Virus record (IMG/VR): IMGVR_UViG_2861069343_000008
Length of the DNA: 23,210 bases
Origin: a virus
Taxonomy: Duplodnaviria; Heunggongvirae; Uroviricota; Caudoviricetes
Strand: one strand, 5' to 3'
Made by a program: the position numbers and the translations under genes. Below are positions 4,866-7,966 of the stretch, one piece after another (the stretch's first letter is position 1; each line of letters starts with the position of its first letter). Below the pieces are notes generated by a model. That model was not told the DNA's origin, did no database searches, and saw only the letters and a program-made list of their open reading frames with translations.

Positions 4866-5052
4866 AGCCTCACCTCCGCAAATAACGGATGGTGTACACG
4901 GTTCGGAACGAAGAGGAAAGGTATAGAAGTTACATTAGCGTAAGGCTTGAACATCTATTCAAAAAGAAAAACGCCGCGATTATTCTGGCGTAGCTGAAAG
5001 CATCATACAATTATCAAATACGAAAATTACAAAATCATTAAAACGCATCACG

Positions 5053-5640
5053 TTACATCATGTCTTTTTCTAAAAAAAATCTTGATGAATATTGATGGGG
5101 AGGAACACCAAAATACCTTCTGAAAACACTTACAAAATATGACGTGTTTTCATAACCGCATATCTCAGCAACTTTTCCAACAGAATATAAATTGTAGCTT
5201 AATAACCTTTCCGCCATCACCATTCGCTCTTCAAGAATTAACTTACTAAATGATAAGCCTTCGTGCTTTAATTTTCTTTTTAACAGACTTTCACTCAGAT
5301 ACAGTCTTGAAGATATATCACAAAGTCTCCATGCTGCAGATATATCCGTGTGAATAATAGCCTTAACTTTACTTCCTAAACTATTAAGACATCCAAATAA
5401 AAAACTTTGCACTATTTTCTCTGAAGATAAGATAGCAAGACATGCAAGTGATATTTGATTTCTAACAAAATCCACAGTTCTGCCATCACAATTCAAGCAT
5501 GCAATCAAGTTCTTTAACAATGAAAAATCTTCACATTCCACCATCAAGTATGCCGGATAAAACCTTCTTACAGAAAAAGGTGAGAGTGTGTTGCTTTTAA
5601 AGAAATCATTAACTGTTTTTTCTTCAACATCTACGATCAT
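5053..5640 (-). CDS. AraC/XylS-family transcriptional regulator (short, about 195 aa)
   Basis: The C-terminal ~85 residues have the two-HTH AraC signature (…LCDISSRLYLSESLLKRKLKHEGLSFSKLI…VGKVAEICGYENTSYFVSVFRRYFGVPPHQY). The N-terminal domain is only ~98 aa. A 495-bp very AT-rich region lies upstream. Confidence 0.7.
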   Translation of the reverse strand: MIVDVEEKTVNDFFKSNTLSPFSVRRFYPAYLMVECEDFSLLKNLIACLNCDGRTVDFVRNQISLACLAILSSEKIVQSFLFGCLNSLGSKVKAIIHTDISAAWRLCDISSRLYLSESLLKRKLKHEGLSFSKLILEERMVMAERLLSYNLYSVGKVAEICGYENTSYFVSVFRRYFGVPPHQYSSRFFLEKDMM

Positions 5641-6134
5641 TACATGATCTATATTTGATGAAAAAAATCTTTTAAATTGTAATCAATGAGAACAGCACTT
5701 CCTTTTTTAAACAAAATATCTTCTTTACCAATTCGGACATCAAACGAATTCAACACCAAAATGATAGAACATATGTATGGCATATTATCCACCTGATATC
5801 ATTGGGGTTACACCAGGTAAGTGTAGGTGGAAAATCAATATTCGCCAGTTCAACAATAAGGAAAATTTCATTACATCACAAGTATAAAATTATGTATTTA
5901 ACTCACAAAGACAAATTATTAAACCAATCTGTTATATTATATATAGCTGCGTGGAATCATAATATCATATATTTTGACTGGCATGTTTACCAACTTTAAG
6001 TTGCATCTCAATTGTTTCTTCAGCGTAAACAGAGTTTTTATACAAACTGACACTCTGGGTATCATAGTGTAGTTTTTACGATTGTAAATATCCTGCATGC
6101 AGGAACTCATCCTTTTGGATGATATCGCATACAA

Positions 6135-7094
6135 TTAATTTACCATCAGTCTTAGAGCCAGTTCGTCCGGATAGGGATCGAAGTAATTTTGTGTAAGCAA
6201 GTAATCATTAGGATACTCACCCAGATAATGCTTCAGCAGAGTCAACGGCGCAAGAAGAGGTAATGTGCCAGAACGATAGTTAAGTATAACCTCGCTCAAC
6301 TCTTTACGCTGGCGTGTACTTAAGTAGTTACTAAAATACCCCTGTATATGCATCAGCACATTCGTGTGATTTTTACGTGATGCAGGTTTTCTGAGAATCG
6401 CCATCAGCTTATCACGATACACCTCAAAGTATGATTCAAGGTCCGCCCACTCGTGTATTGCAGCCACAAATGGTCCCATATCTTTATAGCCTGCCTGACT
6501 ATGCGCCAACAACTGAAGCTTATAACGACTATGAAAAGCTAATAACTCTCTTCTTGATAATTTCTCCTTGTAAAGGTGATTGAGCTCATGCAAAGCAAAA
6601 ACTCTTTCAACAAAATTCTCACGAAGCACTGGATCATGTAATCGCCCATCCTCTTCAACCGGTAGCCAGGAAAACTTTTCCATCAAAGTGCTCGTAAATA
6701 GTCCCACTCCATCTTTACGACCTCGATTACCATTTTCATCATAGACACGCACGCGCTCCATGCCACAGCTGGGAGATTTAGCACAAACCACAAACCCCGA
6801 TACATCCTTTAATTTGTCCATATAAGAACGACTAAACTCTGTCATTCTCTCTGTCACATCCTCATTCTGGTCGTGGCTGAAACACATCCGTATATTTCCT
6901 TGCATCGAGCGCACAAGACGTAGAGCAGGACGCGGAACTGGCAGCCCTATAGCCATTTCCGGACATACTGGTCTGAATGTTACCCATTCCACTAATTTGT
7001 CCATTAAAAAGTCAGCTCTTTTGTGACCACCATCAAAACGAACAGCAGAACCGGCCAAACAACCGCTGATTCCAATCACAGGTTTTTTTATCAT
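6135..7094 (-). CDS. YbgA-family protein (DUF523 TudS-like N-domain plus DUF1722 C-domain)
   Basis: 319 aa. The N-terminus resembles E. coli YbgA, with conserved cysteines in GISGCLAG, PVCPEM and KSPSCG that fit the 4Fe-4S ligands of thiouracil-desulfurase-like DUF523 proteins. Confidence 0.7.
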   Translation of the reverse strand: MIKKPVIGISGCLAGSAVRFDGGHKRADFLMDKLVEWVTFRPVCPEMAIGLPVPRPALRLVRSMQGNIRMCFSHDQNEDVTERMTEFSRSYMDKLKDVSGFVVCAKSPSCGMERVRVYDENGNRGRKDGVGLFTSTLMEKFSWLPVEEDGRLHDPVLRENFVERVFALHELNHLYKEKLSRRELLAFHSRYKLQLLAHSQAGYKDMGPFVAAIHEWADLESYFEVYRDKLMAILRKPASRKNHTNVLMHIQGYFSNYLSTRQRKELSEVILNYRSGTLPLLAPLTLLKHYLGEYPNDYLLTQNYFDPYPDELALRLMVN

Positions 7095-7286
7095 ATTCTC
7101 CCCCTTGACTAATTCATTAACACATAAACTGTGTAGTGCACGGAATAAATTGCCTTTCTGGCGTCATCACTGACAATTTTTCTGTTATGGACTATTCCTA
7201 ATATAGTATGAAAGTTCTTTAAGTGATCGGTCGTAATCATCTATCTTTCATACTTACTCTCAACTATCAAAAGTACAGGATTTATT

Positions 7287-7811
7287 ATGAAGTTATGGCC
7301 TGTGTTGACTGGCATTGCACTCTCTTTCACTCTTATAGCATGTAAGGCCCCGACACCACCTAAAGGTGTGCAGCCGATTACAAATTTTGACGCCAACCGC
7401 TACCTCGGAAAATGGTATGAAATAGCTCGCCTCGAGAACCGGTTCGAACGTGGTCTGGAACAGGTCAGCGCTACTTATGGAAAACGGAACGACGGAGGGA
7501 TTCGTGTACTTAACCGTGGATACGATCCAACGAAAAATAAATGGAGCGAGAGCGAAGGTAAAGCATACTTTACTGGAGATACTAAAACTGCAGCATTGAA
7601 GGTTTCGTTTTTTGGCCCCTTCTATGGTGGCTATAATGTAATCAAACTGGATGATGAGTATAAGTATGCTCTTGTCAGTGGTCCGAACAGAGAATACCTA
7701 TGGATTCTGGCAAGGACCCCAACTATTCCAGATAAAGTAAAAGCAGACTATGTGCGAACCGCTCAAAAGTTGGGATTCAATGTCAATGAATTATTATGGG
7801 TTAAACAATAA
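7287..7811 (+). CDS. blc: Outer-membrane lipocalin, Blc-like lipoprotein
   Basis: 174 aa. Lipoprotein signal with lipobox LIAC. Core motifs NFDANRYLGKWYEIARLENRFERG and KVSFFGPFYGGYNVI resemble E. coli Blc. Opposite strand to the phage late operon. Confidence 0.75.
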   Translation: MKLWPVLTGIALSFTLIACKAPTPPKGVQPITNFDANRYLGKWYEIARLENRFERGLEQVSATYGKRNDGGIRVLNRGYDPTKNKWSESEGKAYFTGDTKTAALKVSFFGPFYGGYNVIKLDDEYKYALVSGPNREYLWILARTPTIPDKVKADYVRTAQKLGFNVNELLWVKQ

Positions 7812-7839
7812 AATCCCTACCCGAAATAATACTTATTAG

Positions 7840-7866
7840 AAAAAAACCAGCCTTTGGGGAGGCTGG
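7840..7866 (-). terminator. tR'-like rho-independent terminator downstream of Q
   Basis: Plus strand AAAAAAACCAGCCTTTGGGGAGGCTGG: on the minus strand this is a 6-bp GC stem followed by a 7-nt U-tract. It sits about 100 bp downstream of the Q stop, where lambdoid phages place tR'. Confidence 0.5.
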
Positions 7867-7966
7867 CTAAATCAGGAAACAAGCTGTTATATGATAATAA
7901 CTACGTTGTGATTCCAACATTTAAAATGTTAGACTAATGACAATCAGACAGCAACTTTTCCTTTAA

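Follow-up and report, generated by a model that had tools for sequence, protein, structure and literature searches.

Between its late antiterminator gene Q and its holin gene S, the lambdoid prophage remnant in IMG/VR virus record IMGVR_UViG_2861069343_000008 carries an island with three genes: blc, encoding a lipocalin; rudS, assigned to a tRNA 4-thiouridine (s4U) desulfidase; and a disrupted gene for an AraC-type regulator. The record was analyzed over all of its 23,210 nucleotides (hereafter, the window). Being present or absent at one position among close relatives and deviating in base composition, the island is a moron in the sense of Juhala/Hendrix, and we interpret the region, with a probability of about 0.8, as a moron cassette of two modules placed in the exchangeable Q-to-S slot of a late region of the DLP12/qsr' type. 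The first-pass annotation, made from the sequence without database searches, had described a three-gene insert of about 3 kb between Q with its tR' terminator and S, with the rudS and AraC genes on the late-operon strand and blc antisense to it. This organization was confirmed, orientations included (Table 1), and the gap from Q to S amounts to 3.1 kb.

The cassette is exchanged for a porin gene in sister phages

In sister phages that share the Q, S, R, and nin genes and show a nucleotide identity of about 95% in the flanks, the slot is occupied by a lone antisense porin gene of the NmpC/OmpD type. At least a dozen phages are of this kind, among them PhiR70_1, mEp332, Turner, and ev099, and the cryptic prophage DLP12 of Escherichia coli K-12 has a porin gene there as well. 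In a blastn comparison with PhiR70_1, homology was confined to positions 3490–4876 and 7985–10018, which places the breakpoints 11 bases ahead of the start codon of S, at its ribosome-binding site (4876), and 18 bases inside the 3' end of Q (7985). The exchanged block (4877–7984) therefore takes in the tR'-like terminator, the presumed pR' region, and the last 18 nucleotides of Q, and while the location proposed for the island earlier (4866–7870) was right, its limits were drawn too narrowly.

The arrangement corresponds to Q-nmpC-S of DLP12, known as the qsr' substitution of lambda, and to that of PhiR70_1, mEp332, ev099, and Turner, all of which have the same type of Q, holin, endolysin, Rz, and nin genes and likewise have a cargo gene in this slot that runs antisense to the late operon. 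However, the replacement amounts to 1.9 kb with a single porin gene in these phages and to 3.1 kb in the window, where it includes blc, rudS, and the AraC gene, and their non-coding stretch after Q is a different one. The slot is also that of stx in Shiga toxin (Stx) phages such as 933W and H-19B, between Q/pR'/tR' and S, and Q933W belongs to the same Pfam family as the Q of the window. In Stx phages, stx is co-transcribed with the late genes through Q antitermination, as was reportedly established for this cargo by Neely and Friedman in 1998 and by Wagner and colleagues in 2001. The cargo of the window differs from that of these phages in that it includes neither toxin nor tRNA genes and has one of its three genes in antisense orientation. 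The previous proposal that the genes are accessory cargo in the late-operon slot used for stx is thus supported by the porin swap.

The same three genes were found in the same order and place in 12 phage records, including those of isolated and viable phages; the cassette of phage IdasGreatGrand is 98% identical to that of the window, and the cassettes of the 1H12/Lambda_ev087 group, from infant gut E. coli, are 90% identical. Order and position are also the same in 74 of 80 IMG/VR loci. These loci were picked via rudS, so that among the figures for gene integrity given below only that for blc is unbiased. Moreover, the cassette occurs in 998–1,154 of 5,426 complete E. coli genomes, and more than 200 complete genomes are fixed for its haplotype.

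This distribution in 12 sequenced phages and 74 of the 80 loci might suggest that the three genes are conserved functions of a phage lineage rather than cargo. We consider such an explanation hardly tenable, as it is already contradicted by the porin that fills the slot in at least a dozen phages sharing Q, S, R, and the nin genes, by a base composition unlike that of the flanks, and by the nearest relatives of blc and rudS outside the cassette, which are located on the chromosomes of Citrobacter, Enterobacter, and related genera. The first-pass annotation had called the genes non-phage, which does not hold given their presence at the same place in viable sequenced phages. It had also raised the case of related phages carrying the same genes at the same place as conserved functions; formally, this is what the comparison of related prophages revealed, with the same cassette in some and the porin in sisters, but the genes are not core phage functions, because sister phages do without them. 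From the viability of these phages, the cassette would be dispensable for lytic growth.

Two short contigs binned in a metagenome-assembled genome of 'Candidatus Nanosynbacter' also contain the cassette together with Q/S/R flanks, with proteins 94–100% identical to those of the window; they almost certainly represent contamination of the bin with E. coli prophage DNA.

Base composition and origin of the two modules

The guanine-plus-cytosine (GC) content of positions 4866–7966 is 38.1%, compared to 46.1% in the rest of the window, and a sliding calculation identified this as the lowest-GC 3.1-kb stretch of the whole window. The depressed GC content claimed before is therefore real, but it is unevenly distributed: the AraC gene (31.6%) and its spacer (32.2%) are far more AT-rich than rudS (43.2%) and blc (43.8%).

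Chromosomal homologs of RudS with 66–76% identity were found in Citrobacter, Enterobacter, Kluyvera, Leclercia, Klebsiella, Pectobacterium, and others, in agreement with the horizontal acquisition suggested previously, as the chromosomal relatives belong to other Enterobacterales, mainly Enterobacteriaceae. In 43 of 64 genome loci, all of them outside E. coli, a Blc about 80% identical to that of the window is encoded divergently upstream of RudS. On the chromosome of Citrobacter sedlakii, blc and rudS are adjacent and divergent with 188 bp between them, compared to 192 bp in the window, and a rudS homolog linked to a divergent blc paralog, as in the cassette, is likewise found in Enterobacter and Leclercia. 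The AraC gene is present in none of the 64 chromosomal loci related to blc and rudS. We regard the island as a composite of a captured blc-rudS pair and an unrelated AT-rich regulator module, because the pair mirrors a chromosomal module and the chromosomal loci all lack the AraC gene.

Chromosomal rudS loci usually include a MerR-type, MlrB-like repressor gene, which the phage cassette lacks. In Enterobacter-type loci (e.g., 5021–7960 of the locus of an Enterobacter sp.), the order is divergent blc, an MlrA/MlrB-like MerR gene, a gene for a transthyretin-like protein, and rudS, so that two genes lie between blc and rudS. A further chromosomal rudS homolog is orf319 (RudS_ST), which is repressed by MlrA and MlrB in Salmonella and forms the mlrB(orf242)-orf319 pair of Salmonella pathogenicity island 2. 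The Enterobacter arrangement is reminiscent of this pair and connects the lipocalin with the MerR-controlled rudS locus of Salmonella. An MlrA-type operator was sought in the intergenic region between blc and rudS of the window, and the best site matched 14 of 22 consensus positions; it was rejected since 932 of 2,000 shuffled sequences contained an equally good one. Alignment of the same region to the chromosomal loci for conserved operators was uninformative due to sequence divergence. This region presumably holds the promoters of both genes.

The blc and rudS genes

The gene designated as YbgA-family in the first-pass annotation encodes a TudS-DUF1722 fusion, which can be assigned to RudS based on its domains and on three cysteines, Cys12, Cys44, and Cys110, at the positions listed for RudS_vir. 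The latter is gp66 of Escherichia phage 1H12, an ortholog with the same three cysteine ligands and the same position in the same cassette; the two proteins are 93% identical, with 21 substitutions and equal length. RudS_vir, expressed in E. coli from a synthesized gene, lowered the s4U content of tRNA (Jamontas et al. 2024, PMC11417400). According to the same study, E. coli lacks RudS, and the prophage gene is thus an addition to the repertoire of its host.

The product of the lipocalin gene scores 316 bits with the NCBIfam model of the Blc subfamily (cut-off 267), matches the E. coli Blc structure 3MBT with an E-value of 3.5e-69, and starts with a lipoprotein signal containing the lipobox LIAC at residues 16–19 (MKLWPVLTGIALSFTLIAC). 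While fold family and lipoprotein signal are shared with the chromosomal Blc of E. coli (PDB 3MBT, 1QWD), identity to it is limited to about two-thirds; with about 80%, the phage protein is closer to the rudS-linked Blc paralog of Enterobacter/Citrobacter than to the product of the ampC-linked blc of E. coli. The gene has been listed as a moron in over half of 19 lambda-type phages (Mathieu et al. 2020, PMC6969025).

Comparison of the two cassette lineages showed purifying selection on each of the three genes, with ratios of nonsynonymous to synonymous substitution rates (dN/dS) of 0.07–0.25, compared to 0.06–0.07 for Q, S, and R. The individual values are 0.07 for blc (against the ev087 allele), 0.11 for rudS, and 0.25 for the regulator gene. 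Among the IMG/VR loci, blc is intact in 79 of 80 and rudS in 80 of 80.

Such conservation of rudS would also be expected if the cassette were maintained above all for an auxiliary role of this gene in the lytic cycle rather than for lysogenic conversion: s4U8 is a photosensor for near-ultraviolet (UV) light that causes growth delay, and RudS supplied by late read-through dependent on Q could strip it from host tRNA, so that translation continues after the inducing UV. In line with this, rudS follows tR' directly on the late strand, no terminator belonging to it precedes the AraC spacer, the gene is intact in every locus examined, the RudS family lessens the growth delay induced by UVA, and chromosomal RudS genes are located in light-responsive operons (PMC11417400). 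On the other hand, sister phages manage without rudS, about 1,000 genomes have kept the cassette, many of them in defective prophages that have no lytic cycle, which points to a host benefit or neutrality, and the tRNA desulfidation activity of RudS_vir was the weakest of the enzymes assayed (PMC11417400). We therefore regard a primarily lytic role as doubtful, albeit not far-fetched.

The regulator gene and its T8 run

The third gene belongs to the AppY/PsrA/YdeO-like members of the AraC family. Alignment with its counterparts in IdasGreatGrand (98% identical) and Lambda_ev087 (90% identical) showed that the intact allele comprises 243 codons and starts at 5783. In the window, a run of seven T residues at 5661–5667 takes the place of the T8 of IdasGreatGrand, and this 1-bp deletion splits the gene into open reading frames (ORFs) of 47 and 195 codons. 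The first-pass annotation was thus correct in listing three genes, an AraC regulator, a YbgA-family protein, and a Blc-like lipocalin, but the first is a pseudogene here and the second is reassigned to RudS. Likewise, the 495-bp spacer that had been placed at 5641–6134 is 351 bp long, as its first 143 bp (5641–5783) form the 5' part of the AraC gene.

The best-matching NCBIfam model, that of YdeO, aligns over residues 1–236 with 127 bits (cut-off 348), and identity is 32% to AppY of DLP12 over the full length and 39% over 235 amino acids to PsrA of the O157 Sakai prophage Sp4, the psrA ORF having been lengthened to an upstream in-frame ATG for this comparison. By these scores, the regulator is a predicted paralog, not an ortholog, of the named AppY, YdeO, and PsrA members. 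It resembles PsrA/PsrB (O157 Sp4/CP-933N, OI-57), PatE, and AppY in the AT-richness of its gene, in its length of about 240 residues, and in an N-terminal motif common to these AraC/XylS regulators, and differs from them in being frameshifted here. Since psrA lies downstream of Q in Sp4, on the Q strand and ahead of tRNA genes, the placement of an AraC-type regulator gene behind Q has a precedent. The regulators AppY, PsrA, PsrB, and PatE act on the gadE/hdeA acid-resistance circuit (PMC10057817, PMC10877973), which members of this group turn on in relatives, and a role of intact alleles of the cassette regulator in gadE/hdeA acid resistance is, by analogy, most likely. Concerning psrA itself (ECs_1087; 18678–19391 of the Sp4 locus), the annotated product has 195 amino acids, while an in-frame ATG 126 nucleotides upstream yields 237, and the longer form can be aligned at its N-terminus with AppY and the regulator of the cassette. 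The start of psrA may have been annotated too far downstream.

The module is closed by a terminator, the stem of which comprises 7 bp in IdasGreatGrand (−12.1 kcal/mol), with T5CT5 after it; in the window, a 1-bp deletion leaves a 5-bp stem (−8.1 kcal/mol). Among the IMG/VR loci, the intact form was found 41 times and the deleted form 16 times. Upstream of the gene, the spacer contains a promoter-like site at 6088–6061 (TTTACA-16-TATGAT, 10 of 12 matches), the block of which is kept in Lambda_ev087, while the remaining spacer has accumulated indels. Together with the terminator after the AraC module, this conserved site may provide the island with signals of its own. An inverted repeat in the spacer, CCACCT (5830–5825) and AGGTGG (5794–5789) on the minus strand, has arms that are conserved and a loop that has diverged between the window and Lambda_ev087; sequestration of the Shine-Dalgarno sequence of the regulator gene by this repeat was considered and dismissed, as the fold was no better than in shuffled sequences (z −1.1) and the pairing was lost in a longer context. 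Furthermore, small ORFs at 5802–5999, 5937–6134, and 7109–7240 were judged spurious, since they are not conserved between the cassette lineages.

The T run near the 5' end of the regulator gene is not only disrupted in the window. In the 58 IMG/VR loci whose AraC module is complete, it is T8 in 45, T7 in 8, T6 in 2, and T9 in 1, while the ev087-type allele reads TTTTCTTTT at this site. All 11 disrupted regulator alleles in the IMG/VR loci are broken at this run, and they are spread over at least 7 haplotype backgrounds, the nearest neighbors of which have T8. A control run at the 3' end of the gene (T8/CT7, 5072–5079) shows a change of length in 0 of 57 loci (Fisher p 6e-4), and this constancy argues against plain homopolymer sequencing errors. 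The T8 tract is therefore a recurrent frameshift hot spot, a small new point of this study.

In complete E. coli genomes, an exact 81-mer with T7 occurs in 231 and the exact T8 81-mer in 240. This split close to 1:1 was considered as a sign of phase variation, an idea that was abandoned: the T7 genomes share one common 1-kb haplotype, which occurs with T8 in only one genome, so that the counts mainly mirror a single, heavily sequenced clone. The haplotype analysis of the IMG/VR loci is thus better evidence for recurrence than the complete-genome counts. These data are most simply explained by recurrent loss at a mutable run. By comparison, we give little credence to a phage-borne stress module in which T8 slippage would act as an on/off (contingency) switch and read-through into rudS behind tR' would strip s4U8 upon UV induction.

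The broken regulator gene raises the question of whether the island in the window is a decaying passenger of a dead prophage with no present function. Both the frameshift and the weakened terminator fit such an explanation, as do the missing head and tail genes, a deletion of 1,097 bp that affects the replication genes O and P, and insertion sequence (IS) elements in the cassette of other genomes. However, blc and rudS are intact here and in nearly all of the loci mentioned above, their dN/dS values are low, and one haplotype has become fixed in more than 200 complete genomes. We consider it distinctly unlikely that the cassette as a whole is such a passenger, although part of it is decaying, given that the prophage is defective and that the AraC module already has two single-base deletions.

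As to the IS elements, they were found in the same attachment-site remnant of some other genomes, with IS1 truncating blc, as in the O6:H16 strain M9682-C1 (7009–7419 of the locus), and with IS2 and IS1 elsewhere. The cassette is decaying independently in several lineages.

Proposed transcription of the cassette

The proposed working of the two-module cassette starts from its origin: module 1 would be the divergent pair of blc and rudS, acquired in one piece from a chromosomal locus of enterobacteria, with RudS acting as a [4Fe-4S] desulfidase that would take the s4U8 modification off host tRNA, and module 2 would be the AT-rich AppY/PsrA-like regulator gene together with the spacer ahead of it and a terminator of its own. 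In the lysogen, a separate promoter would drive blc against the direction of the late operon, and rudS and the regulator gene could be transcribed from promoters of their own as well. Upon induction, RNA polymerase modified by Q would start just downstream of Q, pass the terminator at 7868–7838, proceed antisense through blc, and continue through rudS, the regulator gene, and the module terminator into S-R-Rz. The outcome would be a Q-dependent late burst for rudS and the regulator gene and transcription driven against blc; with the regulator dead, the intact cargo of the window is limited to blc and rudS. Based on gene order and on knowledge of Q and Stx phages, these steps are the most likely ones.

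In intact phages such as IdasGreatGrand, all late genes, from S to the portal gene, lie downstream of the cassette on the Q strand, and the comparison with the porin phages revealed no conserved sequence ahead of S. Late transcripts must therefore originate close to Q and traverse the cargo, as in the case of stx in Stx phages. The passage of late transcription through the cargo, as claimed by the first-pass annotation, thus agrees with gene order in intact phages, but the late operon is vestigial in the window. The tR'-like terminator, previously placed at 7840–7866, was recovered within two bases of these limits and is the sole terminator-like site within 4500–8500 (−14.9 kcal/mol, z −3.5). 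The Q protein itself is 88% identical to QuuD of DLP12 in K-12 and has weak but significant matches to the Q21 structures 6P18 and 6JNX. Its Pfam family, PF06530, has been assigned to the Q21/Q933W family (bioRxiv 10.1101/651190).

Several observations weigh against the proposed working of the cassette. By scanning and by comparison with the porin phages, pR' and the Q-binding element could not be located downstream of Q, and the non-coding region next to Q is unlike that of the porin-type phages with the same Q. Promoter-like hits downstream of Q and in the island were not in excess over shuffled sequences, so that promoters of the cargo's own are an inference. Furthermore, both the low activity of RudS_vir and the two single-base deletions in the AraC module of a defective prophage, discussed above, count on the same side.

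By analogy with lambda, 82, and 21, the stretch just after Q should contain the pR' promoter, the Q-binding element, and the pause site. Two pR' candidates drawn by eye in this region, TTGCTG-17-TAACAT and TTGGAA-17-TCATAT, are not supported, because the scan performed no better than with shuffled sequences and the region differs from that of the porin phages with the same Q. The second candidate lies beside the motif ATATAACAG (7885–7893, minus strand), which is located 72–74 nucleotides past the stop codon of Q in cassette-type and porin-type phages alike, while the region after Q is otherwise unrelated between the two types, with only short motifs in common. This motif is possibly part of pR', of the pause element, or of the Q-binding element. 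A literature search on QuuD yielded nothing useful for placing pR' or the Q-binding element. Finally, no tRNA genes were detected in the island, and Rfam searches resulted in just two sub-threshold matches, one of them on the terminator.

Relation to previous descriptions

The initial observation of an island at this place is correct but ordinary, as it concerns an element of a known kind that is, in substance, known itself; for these same phages, two of the three genes have been published. The slot, the moron concept, blc as a moron (PMC6969025), phage RudS (PMC11417400), and AraC-type regulators of acid resistance in prophages have all been described, and the sequence of the region is annotated in hundreds of genomes. 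What the re-examination contributes is a function from a tested family, that of a predicted tRNA 4-thiouridine eraser, for the 'YbgA' gene, a corrected model of the regulator gene, and the flagging of the T8 run as a site of recurrent inactivation. Furthermore, the blc-rudS half of the cassette mirrors a chromosomal module of other Enterobacterales, and approximately one in five complete E. coli genomes has a phage-borne gene for tRNA de-modification, in a species said to lack RudS (PMC11417400).

Other features of the prophage remnant

Table 1. Features of the Q-to-S region and of the adjoining lysis genes, with positions in the window.
Feature	Positions	Strand	Remarks
Lysis cassette	3689–4865	−	Downstream of the cargo; Pfam PF04971, PF00959, PF03245
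Rz spanin	3689–4156	−	Member of the lysis cassette; based on Pfam
Signal-arrest-release (SAR)-type endolysin	4153–4650	−	Member of the lysis cassette; names in the Prokaryotic Genome Annotation Pipeline (PGAP) for the cassette: essD, rrrD, lysis protein
S21-type (phage 21-type) holin S	4650–4865	−	PF04971
Full segment replaced in comparison with porin-carrying sisters	4877–7984		blastn against PhiR70_1
Terminator closing the AraC module	4961–4991	−	Weakened here by a 1-bp deletion in the stem
AppY/PsrA/YdeO-like AraC-family regulator, pseudogene here	5053–5783	−	HTH_18/HTH_AraC; 'frameshifted' in PGAP
AT-rich spacer upstream of the AraC-type gene	5784–6134	−	351 bp, 32.2% GC
rudS, TudS-DUF1722 fusion	6135–7094	− (late strand)	PF04463 at residues 7–149 and PF08349 at residues 192–309
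Divergent blc/rudS intergenic region	7095–7286		192 bp, 34% GC
blc paralog, outer-membrane lipocalin lipoprotein	7287–7811	+	Antisense to the late operon; Pfam Lipocalin_2, E 7e-44
tR'-like intrinsic terminator	7838–7868	−	9-bp G+C-rich stem 7868–7845, then T7 at 7844–7838
Non-coding stretch directly downstream of Q	7869–7966	−	Expected place of pR', Q-binding element, and pause site
Late antiterminator Q, QuuD (DLP12) type, Q21/Q933W family	7967–8344	−	Pfam PF06530, E 2e-51

The window represents a lambdoid prophage remnant of E. coli at the lambda attachment site, between ybhB/bio and ybhC, and is 100% identical to the prophage of strain GN4554 except for the 1,097-bp deletion. The junction of this deletion lies at 11889/11890, parts of O and P are lost, and an ORF at 11888–12427 bridges it. 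The remnant has retained int, xis, recombination genes, the immunity region, the nin genes, Q, and S-R-Rz, with its late genes on the minus strand. According to the annotation of an identical genome, a nohD remnant directly adjoins tail-fiber fragments, the head and tail genes having been lost. The prophage is thus defective, and its late operon is vestigial because all head and tail genes are missing.

Two further regions of the window contain genes of potential accessory nature. In the immunity region, beside the gene for an S24-peptidase repressor, a HipA-family kinase gene (14180–14929, plus strand) is followed by a DUF3037 gene (14926–15753, plus strand), these names being taken from the PGAP annotation of the identical genome; this pair is a possible toxin or defense moron. 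Two overlapping ORFs at 10025–10477 and 10474–11034 (minus strand), located between the nin genes and ren, encode products with lipoprotein-type signal peptides. They look like another moron and lie in the part of the window with the second-lowest GC content (32–36%), in which the low GC content extends to about 11500.

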